The notes: generated by a model not told the origin, from the sequence alone. Shown: positions 4,169 through 36,803, counted from the stretch's first letter. The stretch is DNA of 41,902 nt from a virus (IMGVR_UViG_2778261315_000003); one strand, 5' to 3'. Numbers and translations are program-made.

Positions 4169-7144
4169 TTACATTGACATTAATATAAACATGGATAATT
4201 CATCATAGCGAATTCCGTATCGTCCTCCTGCTTTTTTTACAAGAATCATATTTCCTGTTTTATATTGAGAATAAATTTTCTCACCTGTATCAGGATCTGT
4301 GCTCTCTTCAGTTATCACCTCTTCATCCCATACGTCAGGCCATTCATCGTAACACCAAAAAGCATATTGCTCAGGATTTAAACCATGCTTTCTAAGAATA
4401 TCCCCTACGGTTTGAGCGCCAACGCCAAAATGATACCTGGACGACTCAATTCCTTTGTGATTAATTGAGTCATTAAATTTAAATTTATAGATGACTGACT
4501 TTATTTCAATAGCGGCATCACGCTCTGCATTAAGAATATCATATCTTGTTTTAAGAGTTTCATCTGATGTATTGATTGACCCGGTTCCTGCATAAATAAC
4601 AGAGCATCTGTTTGATGGCTGTCCAATAGCTTTAACATTATCATCAACAGGAGCTATTTTATTAGCATCTGCCAACCACCAGTCTGTTCCATCAGCGTGA
4701 CCGATTCTTACTCTTATCCCACTTCTAATATTTAAACTTCCAGTATTACTCTGTAAATTACAATCTCCTGACGTTGGTCCAAGCAGTACAGTTTTACCAA
4801 CACCACATACTACTCTGGCATTTCCTTTTTGTGATACGAGTCTTGACTCACCTCCTGACTGCTCAGGAAGAGATTTATGGTCTATAAATGCATCGCGGGG
4901 GTTAAATACACCGTCTCCAGAATTATATCTTCCTCCTGTATAGTTGTTAAATACAGGACCCCAGTCAACGCCATTGCCTTCAGAGCACCCGACCATTCTA
5001 AGCACTCGCGTATTCCCTGCTGCATATGGTAATGAGCTTGTTGATTGCCGGGAAGCTATCATACGTGCTCCATAACCAATAGCATTACCACCATTTATAG
5101 TTACATATGCTTGCTGGCTTTCGAAATATGTACTGTAAAAGTTCATATTTCCACAGTCATGCAGATGAATAAGAACATCATCCCATCCCTGAATGGTTCC
5201 CGCATGTACCTGTACACCGCGAACTGGTTCCCCTGAAACCTCCATACACTCTGATGGTCGGCTGAATGGCTGAGACAGGTATTGCGATGTGGCAAGCAGA
5301 TGTGTGTGGTGATACAGGCTGGTAATGTAGCAATCGAAAAATTGCGTTCCCGCCATACCAAAGTTATCTATGTCATTTCGCCGTATAGTAGAACCTACTG
5401 TTGCCTCAGAAGCGTTAGACACTCCAGTAAATACTAACTTATCACCGGATACGGATAATCCTGAATAAGTGAAATTCCTGCCTCCAGATCTTAAAACCCC
5501 GGACGTTTCGAAGGTGTGGCTTGCTGACCATGGGATTTCGATAGTGCTGGACGTTACCGCTGTAATTCGGAATACATCATGGGCGCGGATCGAAACACCC
5601 TTGAATCCCTGGAATCTACAGTGATAATAGTTTTCATCCTCGCCCTGAGCGGCCAGCGTGCCAGATACAGGAATGTTCGTTTTTAAAAGTGCCGTCTTGC
5701 GCCAGTATCCAACCACCTGCAAATTGCGGTATTCATTGCCAAAAGACGCACGTGACCAAATACCTACATCCCACTCATCGCCAAGACCGGTATTTGCAAT
5801 GTCTTTATAACCATCCAGCCCATTGAAATATGGAACAATACGAAAGTTCTCAAGGCGAACACATCCTGTCTCTGGCATCAATATTGCGGCAGAGAATGGT
5901 TTAAGCGTGGCTCTTGTAGCCCCATTAGCATCACCGTTAGTAAAATCCAATAAATCATATGATGACGCAGGTGCCGTTGTTGTATACGGGTCTTCGGAAG
6001 ATGGATTAGAAACCACACCACCACTAACATCCATATTAGAAACACAATCTACAGTATATTTTTTATTTCCTACACCGTACATCAGGAATGTGGTCCCTGT
6101 GGTAATATCAGGAGCAAATGTTGCAGTATATCCAGAGACCCATTTGCCCACACCAAGACCAATTATCCCACCACCAGAAACAGGTGTTAACGTATCCGTT
6201 ATTACATACGCATTATCAGTACCATAAATAACCTTTCCTGTGTTAATGGCAGCTTGCCACGCGGCCCAGTCTATTGACTGAGATAATGAGTCAACAAAAG
6301 GATATAAGGATTTTGCTTCAGAAATTGAAGAAAACCTCTCAGATAATGGATGATATTTCCCATCCCCAATTGCTCCGAATTGTTTTACATTTAAGAAAAG
6401 AGCATTGTTTTCATGCTGAGTTATAGTTACAGCCCCGGCAAATGGCTGCCTTACACCAATTAATGCATCACCTTTTCCTTCTCCTGCGCTAGATAATTGC
6501 AGAAGAACATCTGCGGCACTGCCAGAAGGCACAGGTACACCTATAGGTTTACCATTGACGATACCAATGACAGTTTCTTCCAGTAAATGAACTGGAGGAA
6601 GTGGTTCAATAAAATTATCTGGAACCCGTAATGTCCTGTTAATATTCACATTAACAATATTATCAACATAATTCTTTGTAGCTGCATCTTGAGGCTTGGA
6701 AGGATCGCGCAAATTGCGGATGTAATTATTCAAAGCATCGTAATAGTTTGCCACAAATGATGGCTTGCGCAGCGCCAGGCTAAACCAACTGCGGACTTGC
6801 TGTATCAGCATCGTCAGCTTATCTAACGCGTCTTCATGCACCTCAGCGAAAAACTTTCCCTGATTTCGCAGATCAGTTTCCTGCGTAACTGGTAGCTCTC
6901 GTGATATAGAAATCTGATAACCGTTAGCTAACGCCTTCGACAGAATTACATTACCGCCATTATATCCACCAGCCCCTGTGACAGTGTAATCAGTATCAAG
7001 AGCCAGCACAGCGATATTTTCGTCAAGGTCAACCACCTGTACTGCCAGATCAGATTCCTTGAAAACCCTAAAGGTATACGGAAATGATGTCGTAACGCCG
7101 TTACCTGTGTATTCGTTGTGGTCAACTTCGGTTGAGACCGTCAT
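4169..7144 (-). CDS. tailspike / tail fiber with conserved N-terminal anchor and C-terminal intramolecular chaperone-like domain
   Basis: 991 aa; N-terminus YTGNGVTTSFPYTFRVF typical of podovirus fibre/spike anchors; Gly/Ser/Thr/Asn-rich central beta-rich region; C-terminal tail (...SDETLKTRYDILNAERD...HFGVGAQ...YDELSMF) resembles peptidase-S74-type chaperone domain. Confidence 0.8.
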   Translation of the reverse strand: MTVSTEVDHNEYTGNGVTTSFPYTFRVFKESDLAVQVVDLDENIAVLALDTDYTVTGAGGYNGGNVILSKALANGYQISISRELPVTQETDLRNQGKFFAEVHEDALDKLTMLIQQVRSWFSLALRKPSFVANYYDALNNYIRNLRDPSKPQDAATKNYVDNIVNVNINRTLRVPDNFIEPLPPVHLLEETVIGIVNGKPIGVPVPSGSAADVLLQLSSAGEGKGDALIGVRQPFAGAVTITQHENNALFLNVKQFGAIGDGKYHPLSERFSSISEAKSLYPFVDSLSQSIDWAAWQAAINTGKVIYGTDNAYVITDTLTPVSGGGIIGLGVGKWVSGYTATFAPDITTGTTFLMYGVGNKKYTVDCVSNMDVSGGVVSNPSSEDPYTTTAPASSYDLLDFTNGDANGATRATLKPFSAAILMPETGCVRLENFRIVPYFNGLDGYKDIANTGLGDEWDVGIWSRASFGNEYRNLQVVGYWRKTALLKTNIPVSGTLAAQGEDENYYHCRFQGFKGVSIRAHDVFRITAVTSSTIEIPWSASHTFETSGVLRSGGRNFTYSGLSVSGDKLVFTGVSNASEATVGSTIRRNDIDNFGMAGTQFFDCYITSLYHHTHLLATSQYLSQPFSRPSECMEVSGEPVRGVQVHAGTIQGWDDVLIHLHDCGNMNFYSTYFESQQAYVTINGGNAIGYGARMIASRQSTSSLPYAAGNTRVLRMVGCSEGNGVDWGPVFNNYTGGRYNSGDGVFNPRDAFIDHKSLPEQSGGESRLVSQKGNARVVCGVGKTVLLGPTSGDCNLQSNTGSLNIRSGIRVRIGHADGTDWWLADANKIAPVDDNVKAIGQPSNRCSVIYAGTGSINTSDETLKTRYDILNAERDAAIEIKSVIYKFKFNDSINHKGIESSRYHFGVGAQTVGDILRKHGLNPEQYAFWCYDEWPDVWDEEVITEESTDPDTGEKIYSQYKTGNMILVKKAGGRYGIRYDELSMFILMSM

Positions 7145-7248
7145 GTTAAATCTCCAGATAGTCGCAGCACCCGTTGCGCCGCATATCTGGTTATTCTATT
7201 ACCTGGAAAACCACATATGGATATAAAGGCTGTAAATACGAATAGATA

Positions 7249-7263
7249 TTACCTTTCAGGTAA
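7249..7263. promoter_or_regulatory. palindromic operator-like site TTACCTTTCAGGTAA
   Basis: Perfect TTACC-N5-GGTAA; intergenic between tailspike start and divergent small gene. Confidence 0.6.
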
Positions 7264-7339
7264 TTTGCAAAACGTGCTGGATAGCAAACAAATTATTTGC
7301 TACTGTATAAATATACAGTTATTGCATGGAGAAGATAAG

Positions 7340-7597
7340 ATGCAGCAGTATCACTATCCACTGGAAGACGGATTTACCGAAAGGATTCACACGCCGGGAG
7401 GCGTCAGGTCACTGGTGGAGGGATCGCACTTGATGAAATTACTCCGGGATCTCGATAAGGATGGATTTAATGTCGATGGCCCACTTGCCGAACTGACTGC
7501 ACTGATTAACTACGTCACCAGCTCACAGATGTCTATGCGGGATCTGCAAACACATCTCGACTATTGTGCCGAACAATTACGAAAACAAACCCGGTAA
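7340..7597 (+). CDS. small protein paralogous to the C-terminal domain of the Bro-N protein
   Basis: Start moved to internal Met with GGAG RBS, because ORF 7217.. overlaps the operator; roughly 40% identity by eye to the Bro protein C-terminus (IH.P.GV..L.E.S.LM.LL..L..DG..V.G..AELT...Y...RD.QTH..Y). Confidence 0.5.
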   Translation: MQQYHYPLEDGFTERIHTPGGVRSLVEGSHLMKLLRDLDKDGFNVDGPLAELTALINYVTSSQMSMRDLQTHLDYCAEQLRKQTR

Positions 7598-7619
7598 ATT
7601 TAAAGGCCGCAAGAGCGGC

Positions 7620-8348
7620 CTATCGTTTCGCTTTGTGCTCATCCCAGCACGTTTTGCACCATGCCATTAAGCCGTCCGCATTTTGATTATTAGGGTAAAA
7701 GCTGGTTCGTTTTCTGCGGACATTACAAATTGGGCACCACTTCATATGGCGTGTATTCTTTGGGCCATCGAGACACCTTGCACACCATTTAGTCAATCCA
7801 TCTGGATTTTTTGACGATTTCCTGAATTTTTCATATGGAAGGTTTATTCTGCATCGCAAGCACTGCTTGCTACCACTTGAAACTCTGTTAGCTGATTCTT
7901 CTTTTGGCGGCGATACAGAAGGTATTCTTGCTGGCTCTGATATTGCCTGAGGTGCTTTTTTAGATGACTGAGACGATATGTCATCACCAGGGAATCTTCC
8001 ATGATATGCCGGACGCGTTGACACTCCAGGTGGAATCTCAGCTGTAAACGGCTTTGGCTGAATCAGTTGCCTCTCTTTTGCTAACTCCTGCTGTTTATAA
8101 TATGTCTGGATTACCGCACTATCATAAGCAGGAGGTGCGGAAATATTAGGCGCATTACCTCCAGTTTTTTGAAACTGAGTAGAGGTGTGTTCTATCACCT
8201 GTGTACGATTAATCGTTATCTCCCCATCTTCGGTCTTTATCGTTTTGTTATGATTAACGACCGTACGATCAGAGATCTTAGTCTTGTTCTGGTTGATAAC
8301 GTAAATAATCACCGCAACCACACCAACAACTATCCAGAAAACTTCCAT
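7620..8348 (-). CDS. membrane-anchored protein with Pro-rich linker and tandem C4 zinc-ribbon-like repeats
   Basis: 242 aa; N-terminal TM FWIVVGVVAVIIYVI; repeated C-x2-C ... NPDGL..WC..C units near C-terminus; own promoter region with two operators upstream. Confidence 0.6.
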   Translation of the reverse strand: MEVFWIVVGVVAVIIYVINQNKTKISDRTVVNHNKTIKTEDGEITINRTQVIEHTSTQFQKTGGNAPNISAPPAYDSAVIQTYYKQQELAKERQLIQPKPFTAEIPPGVSTRPAYHGRFPGDDISSQSSKKAPQAISEPARIPSVSPPKEESANRVSSGSKQCLRCRINLPYEKFRKSSKNPDGLTKWCARCLDGPKNTRHMKWCPICNVRRKRTSFYPNNQNADGLMAWCKTCWDEHKAKR

Positions 8349-8368
8349 TGCTTTTCCTCACAATAACA

Positions 8369-8383
8369 TTACCTTAAAGGTAA
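8369..8383. promoter_or_regulatory. palindromic operator-like site TTACCTTAAAGGTAA
   Basis: Perfect TTACC-N5-GGTAA, 21 bp upstream of the 7620..8348 gene start. Confidence 0.6.
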
Positions 8384-8461
8384 TATCTTGCTTTCAGGTG
8401 ATCAAGCGTTAAACGCAATCAACCAAATACGGTTGATTTTAATGTTTCTTCGCGCTTATCA

Positions 8462-8476
8462 TTACCTTTACGGTAA
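8462..8476. promoter_or_regulatory. palindromic operator-like site TTACCTTTACGGTAA
   Basis: Perfect TTACC-N5-GGTAA in the divergent intergenic region between the 7620..8348 and Bro genes. Confidence 0.6.
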
Positions 8477-8743
8477 ATTTACATCGCACTCCTCTTGTGC
8501 CATAGTAATCGGGCACTGGCAAAATCCAGTGCCGGGATTGGTCTCCCGGATTACTACAGAGGCACATATGCCGCATAAGCGGTTTTTTTATGTGTAAAGC
8601 GCACCTATTCTATGGTGGGCTGTGTGGGGGCACCGAAAGGTGCGCCGGGTTCCTTTGTAGCCGGTAAGACCAACTCTGCACAGTTCACCACCATCTGATT
8701 GGTCTCAGCGGTGGTGATTAACCTAACTACAAAGGTGATCGCC

Positions 8744-9436
8744 ATGAATACCAAACCTTCCATCTTTTCCTTTGAGTCATCCTGCCAGATCCGTATGTTC
8801 ATGATTGACGGAGAACCTTGGTTTGTCACCAAAGATGTGTGCAATGCTTTGAATATTGATGTTACACAAGCGAGAAAACTTGATAAAAAAGGCTGGAACA
8901 AAAAGGGGCTGTATTCAATACAGACCCCTGGTGGAATACAAGAACTATCCATCGTTTCAGAATCAGGTCTCTACATCCTTATTCTGCGTTGCAAAGAGGC
9001 AATGACTGAAGGAACGAGAGCATTCAGATTTCTTGAATGGGTTACAGGTGAGGTTCTTCCTCAGATCCGCCGCACCGGAAGTTACATTAAAAACTCGCTC
9101 CCGCAGGAAGAACGCATAAAGATGGTTGCCGACCAGGTAGCCAACGCCACGGCGTCAGCAGTAATGCAGGCGATGAAGATAGAGAACAAAACCTACAGTG
9201 CCCCACTGAAGCCCGGCTACCGCAGCCTGATTCATTCTCCGTCTGGTGTTCTCGGCCTGACGGAGAACTCACTGCTGATGAATCTGCTGAACCAGTTACA
9301 GGACGACGGGCACGACGTATCGGGCGCGGCGGCGGAGCTGACCACCATGTTCTGTTACATCGTTGGTGTGAGCAAATGCCTGCGTGATATCCAGACACAC
9401 GCAGAGTACATCAATGACAAGGCAGGGTTCTTCTGA
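8744..9436 (+). CDS. Bro-N domain protein, putative antirepressor
   Basis: Bro-N signature FSFE...IRMFMIDGEPWFVTKDVCNALNI...TPGGIQ...SESGLYILILR...FLEWVTGEVLPQIRRTGSY; start at Met 8744 with AGGTGA RBS. Confidence 0.8.
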   Translation: MNTKPSIFSFESSCQIRMFMIDGEPWFVTKDVCNALNIDVTQARKLDKKGWNKKGLYSIQTPGGIQELSIVSESGLYILILRCKEAMTEGTRAFRFLEWVTGEVLPQIRRTGSYIKNSLPQEERIKMVADQVANATASAVMQAMKIENKTYSAPLKPGYRSLIHSPSGVLGLTENSLLMNLLNQLQDDGHDVSGAAAELTTMFCYIVGVSKCLRDIQTHAEYINDKAGFF

Positions 9437-9521
9437 CGGGCGGCGGCACATGGATGTGCCTACAATTATCAATAATTGTTTACACTCGTTGCAGTTAAAA
9501 GCATTATACTCATGTTTAAAA

Positions 9522-9536
9522 TTACCCGATTGGTAA
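9522..9536. promoter_or_regulatory. palindromic operator-like site TTACCCGATTGGTAA
   Basis: Perfect TTACC-N5-GGTAA, 22 bp upstream of the 9558 start codon. Confidence 0.6.
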
Positions 9537-9557
9537 AGTCGATTGGTTGAGGTTCAT

Positions 9558-9884
9558 ATGAGCAGAAGATATGTCAAGGAGCTGGCTATAGAGTCTGGCA
9601 CCCCTTTGGGTATCGTTCCTGGCTCCAACTATGCCAAGGCTTTAAACCGAGACTCTGTCGTCAAAGTTATATCAAGAGACATGAATATGGTCGGAGACGA
9701 TCTCAGACGGTCAGAAAATCGTGTTTATGCTGAATATATAGTAAAGAACGGAAAAAAAATTGCAGCGCCTGCTGGCGGAAAATGGGCAATAGTGACAGGG
9801 AAAAACTCAAATGCAAGAGGAAAACCAGAAGCTAAAGGAATGTCCTTCGACAAATATGCAAAAATCTATTGGGCAACCAAGTGA
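9558..9884 (+). CDS. hypothetical basic protein (about 108 aa)
   Basis: ORF with GAGGT RBS; Lys/Arg-rich; first gene of an operator-controlled two-gene cassette. Confidence 0.45.
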   Translation: MSRRYVKELAIESGTPLGIVPGSNYAKALNRDSVVKVISRDMNMVGDDLRRSENRVYAEYIVKNGKKIAAPAGGKWAIVTGKNSNARGKPEAKGMSFDKYAKIYWATK

Positions 9885-10359
9885 TAACGAAGAAACTGAG
9901 TTCGAGGAAGTTGAGGAAGGGCTAAGTAACGAGATCATTCAACACCCAGATGCCTTCACAAGAGTTCTTGATCGCCCTGAAATTCAGGAGATAGTTGTCG
10001 CTCACCATGCGTTTCAGGGTCCGCTTCCTCCCCCCTATCTGCTTCGCGGGTATCAGGATATTTTACCTGATGCCCCCGAACGCATCTTCCAGCTGACGGA
10101 GAAGGAGTTTGCTCACCGCCAGAAAATGGAGGAAAAGGCACTTGACGGGGCTATTAATAGAGATAAACGTGGGCAGTGGTTTGGCCTGAGTGCAACTATT
10201 TTTACAGTAGCTTGTGCAACATTATTAGGTTTAACAGGTCATGAAGTTCTAGCTGGCACAGTGATCGGTACAGTTGTTGCAGTGGCTGGTATTTTCGTTC
10301 TTAGACAAAAACCAAGCATCAAGAAGAAATCTGAAGACAACAAACCTGAAGAAAAGTAA
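9856..10359 (+). CDS. membrane protein, DUF2335-like (2 C-terminal TM helices)
   Basis: Acidic N-terminal region; motif HHAFQGPLPPPYLLRGYQDILPDAPERIF as recalled for DUF2335; two TM helices near C-terminus; start could be 9811 or 9856. Confidence 0.55.
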   Translation: MQKSIGQPSDNEETEFEEVEEGLSNEIIQHPDAFTRVLDRPEIQEIVVAHHAFQGPLPPPYLLRGYQDILPDAPERIFQLTEKEFAHRQKMEEKALDGAINRDKRGQWFGLSATIFTVACATLLGLTGHEVLAGTVIGTVVAVAGIFVLRQKPSIKKKSEDNKPEEK

Positions 10360-10382
10360 GCCCGCGCTGCGGGCTTTTTTGT
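10359..10382 (+). terminator. rho-independent terminator
   Basis: GCCCGC-GCTG-CGGGC followed by TTTTTTG immediately after the stop codon. Confidence 0.6.
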
Positions 10383-10452
10383 GGGCGAAACAAAAGTCAG
10401 TGCTACACTCATTGACGCCACATTGAGGTGGTTTATAGATGGAAATTTCACA

Positions 10453-10614
10453 ATGAAAAAAGCATTTGCTGCACTGTTCGTTTTGTTGTCTCTGGTAGCT
10501 TCAACTCAGGCCTTTGCCGGTCGTTGTCAGCACGACAGCGATACTGCCGCTGACGGCTCCCGCTGCGGTGGGCATTCTGCGGATTCCCGCCCGGGCGGCG
10601 GTGGCATTCGTTAA
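10453..10614 (+). CDS. small secreted Cys-containing peptide (about 53 aa)
   Basis: Start at internal Met MKKAFAALFVLLSLVASTQAFA (signal peptide), Gly/Ser/Asp-rich mature part with 2 Cys; candidate TTGACG-16-TATAGA promoter upstream; terminators on both sides. Confidence 0.45.
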   Translation: MKKAFAALFVLLSLVASTQAFAGRCQHDSDTAADGSRCGGHSADSRPGGGGIR

Positions 10615-27267: not shown

Positions 27268-27344
27268 GTGGCATTAGCTCAGTTGGACAGAGCAACCGCC
27301 TTCTAAGCGGTTGGTCGCAGGTTCGAATCCTGCATGCCACGCCA
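27268..27344 (+). tRNA. tRNA-Arg (anticodon UCU)
   Basis: Cloverleaf folded by hand: acceptor GTGGCAT/ATGCCAC, D-arm GCTC..GAGC, anticodon stem ACCGC/GCGGT with loop CTTCTAA, T-arm GCAGG-TTCGAAT-CCTGC, discriminator G, encoded CCA. Confidence 0.9.
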
Positions 27345-35833: not shown

Positions 35834-36064
35834 TCATGAGTAGAAGAAGTATGCCAGTTCTGCTTTTGAGCGCAGCCATTGTCTTGTTTTACAGGCTTTA
35901 AAAAGCCCATTCATCAATACCTTACCTGGCATTTTGCGCTTACCTGTTAAGTGAGTCTGGATATAGTGACTCGTCGTTCCGGCTTCCTGTGCGAAGGCTT
36001 CACGCTCATCCGGAGTAAGTGCAAGCCAGTGCTTTTTGAAATCGAAATGTCCGTTATCGCTCAT
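35834..36064 (-). CDS. Cro-like small DNA-binding regulator
   Basis: 76 aa, divergent from repressor gene, HTH-like LTPDEREAFAQEAGTTSHYIQTHLTGKRKMP. Confidence 0.5.
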   Translation of the reverse strand: MSDNGHFDFKKHWLALTPDEREAFAQEAGTTSHYIQTHLTGKRKMPGKVLMNGLFKACKTRQWLRSKAELAYFFYS

Positions 36065-36100: not shown

Positions 36101-36115
36101 TCACCCATAAGGTAA
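36101..36115. promoter_or_regulatory. operator-like site variant TCACCCATAAGGTAA
   Basis: One-mismatch variant in the repressor/cro intergenic region. Confidence 0.4.
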
Positions 36116-36131
36116 CAAAAATCAAGGATAG

Positions 36132-36146
36132 TTACCTATGAGGTGC
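36132..36146. promoter_or_regulatory. operator-like site variant TTACCTATGAGGTGC
   Basis: Two-mismatch variant, adjacent to the perfect site at 36149. Confidence 0.4.
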
Positions 36147-36148
36147 AT

Positions 36149-36163
36149 TTACCTGTTGGGTAA
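36149..36163. promoter_or_regulatory. palindromic operator-like site TTACCTGTTGGGTAA
   Basis: Perfect TTACC-N5-GGTAA in the divergent repressor/cro promoter region. Confidence 0.6.
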
Positions 36164-36218
36164 TATTGCTTTAAATTGAATCATCTACTGATTCATATAT
36201 GAGGCGATTTTCCAGAAA

Positions 36219-36803
36219 ATGAAAAGTATCCAGGACGTCCGCAGGCAAAATCTCAACGACTTGATCGACCGTGAATTCAATGGTGTTCAGACGCGGATGG
36301 CAGAAAAACTTGGAACTCAGGCAAATCTGGTAAACCGCTGGGCTCTTGGCAAGAAGGTTATCGGCGACCAGGTTGCGCGAAAAATTGAAGCTGCCGCCAA
36401 TAAACCCCGTAACTGGCTTGATATCGATCGCTCGCTTTCTCAGGAAGGTTTTCAGCCTGTCGGCCCAAGCGACATTGGTCAGCTGGCGGCTCACAACCTG
36501 GAACGCTGGATGAGCGAAAGCCGCGACCTTTCAACTCAGGGAAAACTTCACCGCGCATCCGGCGTCGCCCAGGTGACAATCAGCCGCCTGTTAAACAATG
36601 AGGTCAGTGTTTCCATTTCCACCCTGGAGAATGTTGCATCAGCATTCGGGCGTCACGGCTATGAATTACTGATTCACCCGCACGACCCTGCGACCATCAA
36701 CTATGACCGCTCGCGCTACGCATTGTTACCCGAAACCGAGAAAGCAAAGATCGAAAGTTATATTGAATTTGTCATCAACCAGAACGAAAAAAACAAACAA
36801 TAA
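36219..36803 (+). CDS. tandem-HTH (XRE-family) repressor, CI position, no peptidase domain
   Basis: 194 aa; two HTH-like segments (VQTRMAEKLGTQANLVNRWALGK and LHRASGVAQVTISRLLNNE); no S24/LexA-like C-terminal domain visible. Confidence 0.65.
   Translation: MKSIQDVRRQNLNDLIDREFNGVQTRMAEKLGTQANLVNRWALGKKVIGDQVARKIEAAANKPRNWLDIDRSLSQEGFQPVGPSDIGQLAAHNLERWMSESRDLSTQGKLHRASGVAQVTISRLLNNEVSVSISTLENVASAFGRHGYELLIHPHDPATINYDRSRYALLPETEKAKIESYIEFVINQNEKNKQ

Follow-up and report, generated by a model that had tools for sequence, protein, structure and literature searches.

Phage exclusion genes, such as rexAB of lambda, sieA/sieB of P22, gp15 of HK97, and the early-expressed imm of T4, are small, accessory, dispensable, and membrane-associated, and lambda keeps rexAB in the slot after cI. 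The early protein p16.7 of Bacillus phage phi29 possesses an N-terminal membrane anchor, a linker, and a C-terminal cytoplasmic domain that binds nucleic acid. The tandem zinc finger of Stc1 is protein-binding and binds Argonaute in the eukaryotic nucleus. Here, we describe a likewise small, accessory, dispensable, and membrane-associated gene (hereafter the zinc-ribbon gene) at 7620-8348 of IMGVR_UViG_2778261315_000003, a viral stretch of 41,902 nucleotides that was analysed over its whole length (the window). Following host DNA at its start, the window is an epsilon15/phiV10-like (Uetakevirus-type) prophage. The encoded protein is tentatively considered to be a superinfection-exclusion or inter-phage conflict factor acting on entering DNA.

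Compared with the exclusion genes above, the zinc-ribbon gene likewise forms a single-gene cassette with its own predicted promoter and terminator, and its homologs lie downstream of cI in four lambdoid lineages, which is a rexAB-like position. It differs from them in the lack of sequence or fold similarity, in its cytoplasmic pair of zinc ribbons, and in being predicted to be silenced by the repressor in this prophage, not expressed in the lysogen. The family is already in databases, solely as "hypothetical protein" or PHROG 6762; its architecture is undescribed, and its regulatory wiring is unusually clear. A literature search, including phage Stc1 domains and membrane-anchored zinc-ribbon exclusion proteins, found no paper on the PHROG 6762 family. 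The gene and its parts are the following:

7620-8348, minus strand: coding sequence of the membrane-tethered tandem zinc-ribbon protein, 242 amino acids, ATG start, PHROG 6762
8289-8342, minus strand: residues 3-20, single transmembrane (TM) helix, predicted N-out/C-in signal anchor
8184-8288, minus strand: residues 21-55, conserved juxtamembrane segment NQNKTK..DRTV....TIKTEDGEI.I.RTQV
7875-8183, minus strand: residues 56-158, disordered and variable Pro/Ser/Gln-rich linker, a leash of about 100 residues
7755-7874, minus strand: residues 159-198, zinc ribbon 1 (C163, C166, C189, C192), modelled at pLDDT above 90
7623-7754, minus strand: residues 199-242, zinc ribbon 2, with the RRKRTS basic patch and a C-terminal helix

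The gene and this architecture are real, and the first-pass annotation, which had recognized an N-terminal TM helix, a Pro/Ser-rich linker, and two Cys repeats, is upheld by hydropathy, AlphaFold2, and the homolog alignment. One hydrophobic segment was detected at residues 1-20 (Kyte-Doolittle 19-residue mean of 2.33), and AlphaFold2 places a helix at residues 3-20 with a predicted local distance difference test score (pLDDT) of about 90. This helix is preceded by M-E, which contains no basic residue, and followed by NQNKTKISDR. Because basic residues are present only after the helix, the protein is predicted by the positive-inside rule to be N-out/C-in, with a two-residue periplasmic N-terminus in the inner membrane. 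The topology prediction that had been suggested as a check has thus yielded a single TM helix with the C-terminus inside, from Kyte-Doolittle values, AlphaFold2, and the charged flanks together, and an inner-membrane location, a trait of the exclusion class, is found by prediction (single TM helix). The zinc domain would be cytoplasmic, because it is of the Cys4-zinc type and carries a net charge of +14. A signal-peptide or periplasmic Cys-rich protein was also considered and rejected: there is no basic n-region before the helix, basic residues come after it, and the relatives of the domain are soluble cytoplasmic proteins.

For the juxtamembrane segment, the homolog alignment shows invariant N21, T39, and G42 and conservation of at least 90% at many positions, and the motif is also kept in distant relatives of the TM class. 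The segment is possibly a beta-hairpin, as AlphaFold2 models two strands there with low confidence (pLDDT 46-59). Residues 61-158 of the linker contain 28% Pro plus Ser with pLDDT mostly below 50 (AlphaFold2), and the linker length differs by about 45 residues across homologs. ZipA of E. coli shares a Type Ib bitopic topology, a basic juxtamembrane region, a long P/Q-rich linker, and a globular cytoplasmic C-terminal domain with the zinc-ribbon protein, and one homolog was automatically annotated as "ZipA" by the Joint Genome Institute (JGI). However, the C-terminal domain of ZipA is not homologous, and is a zinc-free alpha/beta domain that binds the FtsZ tail.

The zinc domain consists of two repeats, C163-x2-C166-x22-C189-x2-C192 (motif NPDGLTKWCARC) and C205-x2-C208-x22-C231-x2-C234 (motif NADGLMAWCKTC), which align with each other at a BLOSUM62 local score of 69. 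All eight Cys are invariant in 30 homologs, and the domain is modelled by AlphaFold2 at pLDDT 89-95. The net charge of +14 falls on the last 84 residues, where RRKRTS, KFRKSSK, W188, W204, and W230 are conserved basic or aromatic residues. For close alleles from E. coli, the ratio of nonsynonymous to synonymous substitution rates was about 0.07-0.15 over the zinc domain versus about 1 over the linker (small counts), which suggests purifying selection on the zinc domain.

PHROG 6762 is the sole full-length family match (E = 5.7e-150, residues 1-242 on profile positions 1-242 of 242), and its homologs are all labelled "hypothetical". Pfam Stc1 (PF12898) scored 21.1 bits (E = 4.7e-4), below its gathering threshold of 24.8 bits, while distant relatives with more repeats pass that threshold at 39.2 and 25.7 bits. 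No match was found in the NCBIfam scan, so the previous statement that the protein belongs to no known family holds: PHROG 6762 is the only full-length match, Stc1 is sub-threshold, and NCBIfam and PADLOC gave nothing. The best match of the full model in the PDB is the tandem zinc finger of S. pombe Stc1 (PDB 2LUY), and the eight conserved Cys of the Stc1 type, in two CxxC...CxxC units, are present. PHROG matches of the zinc part are to Zn-ribbon portions of endonuclease VII, HNH endonuclease, primase, and Lar-like PHROGs; zinc ribbon 2 matches the N-terminal Zn modules of EndoVII, HNH, and Lar-like PHROGs, and zinc ribbon 1 weakly matches the N-terminal Zn module of PacI. A sequence search of the PDB returned only chance-level RING matches plus the weak match to the PacI N-terminus. 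The C-terminal domain is predicted to be Stc1-like, and to have the fold type of accessory Zn modules at the N-termini of phage and giant-virus HNH/EndoVII nucleases and PacI. The fold search that had been proposed as a check ranked Stc1 first in the PDB for the full model, and gave accessory Zn modules of nucleases for the domain model.

According to the domain model, the BFVD matches (E of about 1e-6) are N-terminal Zn modules of phage and giant-virus HNH/EndoVII/beta-beta-alpha-Me nucleases, and the fact that most matches are nucleases could suggest a membrane-bound nuclease of HNH type (beta-beta-alpha-Me) cutting incoming DNA. However, these matches span the accessory Zn modules and not the catalytic core, an invariant D-G occupies the position of the D-H general base in both repeats with no conserved H/N pair in the homolog alignment, and Pfam HNH and Endonuclease_7 gave no match even at E<=1. 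As no conserved HNH catalytic residues and no nuclease family were detected, the protein is taken not to be a nuclease, and this reading is extremely improbable. The zinc-ribbon protein shares two consecutive C-x2-C...C-x2-C ribbons with a D-G...(W)C-x2-C signature with the Stc1 and nuclease Zn modules, but differs in being membrane-tethered and in having no nuclease, helicase, or other enzymatic partner domain.

A wider-family profile search over 1.84 billion representative proteins detected the Stc1-like zinc module in 3111 clusters at E<=1e-3. Among the best 150 of these clusters, about 45 have the same TM architecture (180-240 amino acids), with a TM helix, the N-Q-N-K-T...T-I-K-T-x-D-G-E segment, a linker, and two ribbons; the remainder are soluble arrays of 2-14 ribbons, some of which are fused to Bro-N+T5orf172, KilA-N, SF1 helicase, HEAT repeats, or a J-domain. 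The DNA-associated fusion partners (Bro-N+T5orf172, KilA-N, and SF1 helicase) speak for a nucleic-acid ligand. Because fusion partners and relatives are DNA-associated, and because basic and aromatic residues are conserved, the ligand of the zinc domain is suggested to be nucleic acid.

The same fold evidence gives rise to another reading, in which the LIM/Stc1-like module would bind a cytoplasmic protein of the host or the phage and keep it at the membrane, as membrane anti-sigma factors and ZipA do with their partners. Such a protein might be a host factor, or the repressor or an antirepressor as regulators of the lysis-lysogeny switch. The closest solved fold, Stc1, is a protein-binding domain, and the order of TM helix, P,S,Q-rich linker, and globular C-terminal domain is the layout of ZipA. 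On the other hand, a polyanion ligand is suggested by the net charge of +14 and by the conservation of RRKRTS and KFRKSSK. Nucleases, helicases, and DNA-binding domains also make up the great majority of the module's relatives and fusion partners, and protein sequestration is considered rather unlikely. The genomic contexts that bear on it are given below.

The zinc-ribbon gene and its control elements form an inserted cassette relative to phiV10. The elements of this cassette, together with the regulatory genes to which they presumably respond, are listed as follows:

7598-8453: cargo cassette, an 856-base-pair (bp) insertion compared with phiV10, holding terminator, gene, Shine-Dalgarno sequence, operator, and promoter
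7604-7621, minus strand: intrinsic terminator hairpin of 7 pairs, 6 of them G-C, overlapping the stop codon of the zinc-ribbon gene
8354-8359: Shine-Dalgarno sequence GAGGAA of the zinc-ribbon gene
8368-8384: operator O(znr), perfect palindrome ATTACCTTAAAGGTAAT with zero mismatches on both strands, overlapping the -10 element and the predicted start
8377-8405, minus strand: predicted sigma70 promoter, with -35 TTGATC at 8400-8405, a 17-nucleotide spacer, and -10 TACCTT at 8377-8382
8417-8438: palindrome or hairpin with 8-bp arms, AATCAACC-N6-GGTTGATT, just upstream of the -35 element
35834-36064, minus strand: cro-like gene
36219-36803, plus strand: phage repressor of 194 amino acids, two helix-turn-helix (HTH) regions, no S24 peptidase, Pfam HTH_3

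phiV10 aligns to the window at 7004-7597 and 8454-9447, with about 23 bp in between, and the cassette includes about 70 bp upstream of the operator at 8368-8384. The terminator is used back-to-back with the convergent gene at 7340-7597. The zinc-ribbon gene is missing in phiV10, ZX5, and most sequenced relatives, while phage EC.W1-9 (locus L098, 2088-3100) carries two unrelated genes, encoding 168 and 139 amino acids, in the same slot and orientation; neither has a Pfam or PADLOC match. The earlier suggestion of a cargo hotspot is therefore supported, with the slot empty in phiV10 and filled by another two-gene cassette in EC.W1-9. As in a moron, presence/absence polymorphism in collinear phages, an own terminator, and a conserved predicted promoter were found. 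The EC.W1-9 cassette contains an operator-like site TTTACCCTAGAGGTAG directly after a TAGAAT -10 element, suggesting that alternative cargo cassettes in this slot may each carry a phage operator.

The palindrome ATTACC-N5-GGTAAT gave 19 strand-matches with at most two mismatches in the window, versus 0.2 expected by chance. Sites with at most one arm mismatch number 12, and lie at 7248, 8368, 8461, 9521, 26930, 30120, 30138, 33805, 33867, 36148, 36860, and 36922. The stretch that separates the cro-like gene from the repressor gene contains three operator-like copies next to one another, at 36103-36164. The 194-amino-acid repressor is 100% identical to that of vB_EcoP_ZX5, of which overexpression abolished lytic growth (PMC9782041). 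The palindrome is thus regarded as the putative operator of this repressor, and also of Cro. It was also observed that the operator is scattered across the whole prophage, occurring before each transcription unit of the accessory island and near the terminase and tRNA regions; such scattered operators indicate a distributed repressor regulon.

The predicted promoter of the zinc-ribbon gene was recognized by comparing the upstream regions of six lineages with 45-63% protein identity. In five of the six, TTGAnn lies exactly 17 nucleotides upstream of TACCTT (TAACCT in Providencia), while the spacers are alike at only 4-8 of 17 positions across lineages. The TACCTT hexamer is the left arm of the operator. 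Serratia, Providencia, Enterobacter-type, and further lineages also have an operator in the same place with respect to the ATG. Transcription is predicted to start near 8370, and a bound repressor would occlude both the -10 element and the start. The operator over the -10 element would thus keep the gene silent in a stable lysogen and allow its expression upon infection or induction. The opposite possibility, that the repressor activates this promoter, was rejected: the operator centre lies about 28 bp upstream of the ATG, and a class II start would fall inside the coding region.

Providencia-type prophages have TTAACC-N5-GGTTAA before the zinc-ribbon gene and at two other places of the island, with no TTACC-type site, which suggests that the operator type co-varies with the phage. 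The first-pass label "operator-controlled" is supported by the single operator, the conserved promoter layout, and the phage-matched operator type, and has to be qualified in that it predicts silence in the lysogen. Its statement of two operator copies upstream stands for one copy, 8368-8384, which lies in the cassette of the gene itself; the other, at 8461-8477, probably goes with a divergent unit. The palindrome at 8417-8438 may serve as an additional site for a regulator or as an insulator resembling a terminator, and Enterobacter/Citrobacter-type prophages (L068-L073) have a different palindrome, GTGACATGTCAC, about 60-72 nucleotides upstream of the ATG of the homolog. It was also noticed that loci L078, L081, L082, L086, and L091, from another group of related prophages, carry a homolog without a TTACC-type operator, with CTGT(A/T)(A/T)AAATATCAG upstream instead; this is a CTG-N9-CAG palindrome, one base shorter than a LexA box, and perhaps represents an operator belonging to another immunity type.

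Tight repressor control of cargo is typical of toxic early genes, and the operator-like site in the alternative cassette of EC.W1-9 follows the same pattern. Accordingly, a host-directed effector may be imagined, which on derepression would perturb the nucleoid, division, or the membrane in a Kil-like manner, or would cause abortive infection. Such an effect is quite improbable, as co-transcription with cI in four lineages would be lethal if the protein were constitutively toxic, and no pore-forming or enzymatic domain and no PADLOC match was found.

An identical or near-identical gene is present in 129 of 5426 complete E. coli genomes (about 2%), always as "hypothetical protein", and 33 homolog clusters were found. 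E. coli ML35 and 118UI, for instance, have a 100% identical copy. Among deposited phages, a close copy occurs in TL-2011b only, and distant homologs occur in three Yersinia phages and one Aeromonas phage. Homologs of 38-63% identity are found in Superficieibacter, Enterobacter, Citrobacter, Salmonella, Serratia, Providencia, Pectobacterium, Buttiauxella, and Edwardsiella. A genome-contig scan with back-translated patterns, which were too narrow, gave two loci only. In epsilon15-like prophages of other genera, the homolog lies in the same tailspike-to-virion island, oriented opposite to the structural genes.

In four separate lineages, cI is followed on the same strand by a TM-class homolog; three of them (Aeromonas phage phiARM81mr, L096/L097, and L101/L102) have a gap of 17-35 bp and the fourth (L094) has one small open reading frame (ORF) in between. 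Immunity genes are found close to the gene in every case, being antirepressor units in the window and cI in the lambdoid phages, as could be expected if the zinc module held a switch regulator at the membrane; however, no partner gene is conserved across the contexts, and this nearness may merely mirror the sites where cargo accumulates. In an Edwardsiella lambdoid prophage, the homolog belongs to the early-right operon after the replication genes, two genes from a RloB + AAA_21 pair. This pair (RloB + AAA_21/AAA_15) lies at 8182-10156 of the Edwardsiella tarda prophage L095, between replication and lysis genes; it is a candidate OLD/AbiL-like defence module, and its nearness speaks for a conflict-type context. 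In Buttiauxella, the homolog is carried by a small integrative element, which has a cI-like repressor gene and lacks virion genes.

The Edwardsiella location, the predicted early and repressor-controlled expression in the present prophage, and the overall design shared with p16.7 of phi29 are in line with a membrane anchor for the phage's own replicating or entering DNA, in replication or packaging. Nevertheless, p16.7 has a helical homeodomain-like dimer domain and serves its phage's own replication, whereas the zinc-ribbon family is dispensable, as seen from the relatives without the gene (phiV10 and ZX5 among them), and is often in the cI operon. The cI-operon location in four lambdoid lineages would mean production in lysogens that do not replicate phage DNA, and the integrative element of Buttiauxella has no virion genes. 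Anchoring of the phage's own genome is hence considered unlikely, to a degree between the protein tether and the toxic effector discussed above.

Returning to the exclusion or conflict factor, the zinc-ribbon protein would act at the cytoplasmic face of the inner membrane, where the tethered zinc-ribbon domain may catch nucleic acid, and the most likely target of this domain would be DNA entering the cell. In the epsilon15/phiV10-like prophage, the gene would be shut off by the 194-amino-acid repressor, possibly also by the cro-like protein. Once repression is absent, as upon infection or induction, it would be transcribed along with the antirepressor units next to it. The factor would protect the cell that harbours the phage genome, whether resident or replicating. 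A conflict role is favoured because it fits both co-expression with cI and early expression after infection or induction, and it also fits because the gene is dispensable and lies in a hotspot. More specifically, and with more doubt, the family may be a single-protein phage-conflict system of a new type, in which a leashed zinc-ribbon DNA catcher intercepts DNA from the ejection channel or another entry route, and which temperate phages would deploy from the cI operon or from repressor-gated cassettes.

Several points weigh against this proposal. Classical exclusion genes are expressed in the lysogen, while the operator at this locus predicts repression there, and the cI-co-transcribed context of lambdoid phages and the repressor-silenced context of epsilon15-like phages do not appear obviously equivalent. 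DNA binding is argued from charge, fold relatives, and fusion partners, and the ligands of zinc fingers of the Stc1 and LIM types are proteins. The PADLOC 2.0 profiles of anti-phage defence and exclusion proteins gave no match at E<=0.1. The -10 element TACCTT is weak, and the standard promoter scan missed the promoter, which was recovered by the lineage comparison only. The candidacy of the gene for superinfection exclusion, abortive infection, or host modulation, raised in the first-pass annotation, hence gains from the context downstream of cI and loses from the predicted silence in the lysogen, which is unlike a classical exclusion moron.

If exclusion of phages or incoming DNA is true, the zinc-ribbon protein would be a mechanistically new single-gene defence at the membrane level, carried by about 2% of complete E. 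coli genomes and by prophages of many Enterobacterales and of Aeromonas. It would also provide the first function for the widespread Stc1-like zinc-ribbon module of phage and giant-virus proteins. A related and equally doubtful idea, which goes with the new type of conflict system above, is that epsilon15-like phages might keep an operator-fitted cargo island as an induction-phase arsenal, and not as lysogen-expressed morons. Regardless of function, cargo cassettes of epsilon15-like phages appear to be wired into the repressor regulon, as opposed to the usual expectation of expression in the lysogen.

The surroundings of the cassette consist of the following features:

4169-7144, minus strand: tailspike gene, following the lysis genes
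about 7150-10600: small accessory island between tailspike and virion genes, holding the zinc-ribbon gene
8461-8477: second operator copy ATTACCTTTACGGTAAA, retained in phiV10
8513-8589, plus-strand unit: isrK, 74.7 bits
8608-8695, plus-strand unit: C4 antisense RNA, 78.6 bits
8744-9436, plus strand: Bro-N antirepressor gene
9543-9884, plus strand: ORF of PHROG 10654, annotated as of unknown function
9811-10359, plus strand: ORF of a DUF2335 membrane protein, PHROG 3996 "moron"
10644 onward, minus strand: virion genes, with portal and terminase genes
about 33-38 kb: immunity/early region, with the integrase-side end beyond

At the start of the window, ORFs 673-1191 and 1207-1746 match yfgH and yfgI of E. 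coli 118UI in lengths and positions. The placement of the zinc-ribbon gene between tailspike and virion genes had been given correctly; its supposed orientation opposite to the structural genes is wrong in this prophage, where tailspike, virion genes, and zinc-ribbon gene are all on the minus strand. It is the island genes 7340-7597, 8744-9436, and 9543-10359 that lie on the strand opposite to the zinc-ribbon gene. A minus-strand ORF at 8605-8952 was discarded as spurious, since it overlaps the C4 RNA and is antisense to the Bro-N gene.

The second operator, at 8461-8477, adjoins the -35 element of a promoter-like site, TTTACA(8478)-17-CATAGT(8506), of which the -10 element ends 7 nucleotides before the isrK match at 8513. 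As phiV10 keeps this operator without the zinc-ribbon gene, it probably belongs to the divergent plus-strand isrK/C4/Bro-N unit and not to the zinc-ribbon gene. This unit (8461-9436), with a sub-threshold a1/b1 target of the C4 RNA at 8500-8552, resembles the immI-like unit of P1 or the isrK-like unit of Gifsy-1. The centre of the operator lies about 44 bp upstream of the isrK match, and the repressor could repress or even activate this unit.

On the other side of the cassette, the 85-amino-acid gene at 7340-7597 (plus strand; PHROG 450, epsilon15 gp19-like) resembles the C-terminal part of the Bro-N antirepressor. Ahead of it are a perfect LexA box, CTGTATAAATATACAG, at 7303-7318, and, at 7248-7264, a perfect repressor operator. 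Given also that the repressor has no S24 peptidase domain, this gene has the look of a small Gifsy-type antirepressor under SOS control. A further operator, at 9521-9537, precedes the overlapping plus-strand ORFs 9543-9884 and 9811-10359, and the region 9521-10359 is, as judged from this arrangement, another repressor-gated accessory unit. Finally, a tRNA gene was identified at 27268-27341 (73.3 bits), between the portal and terminase regions, and a tRNA-Arg is annotated at the corresponding place in the related prophage of the 118UI genome.

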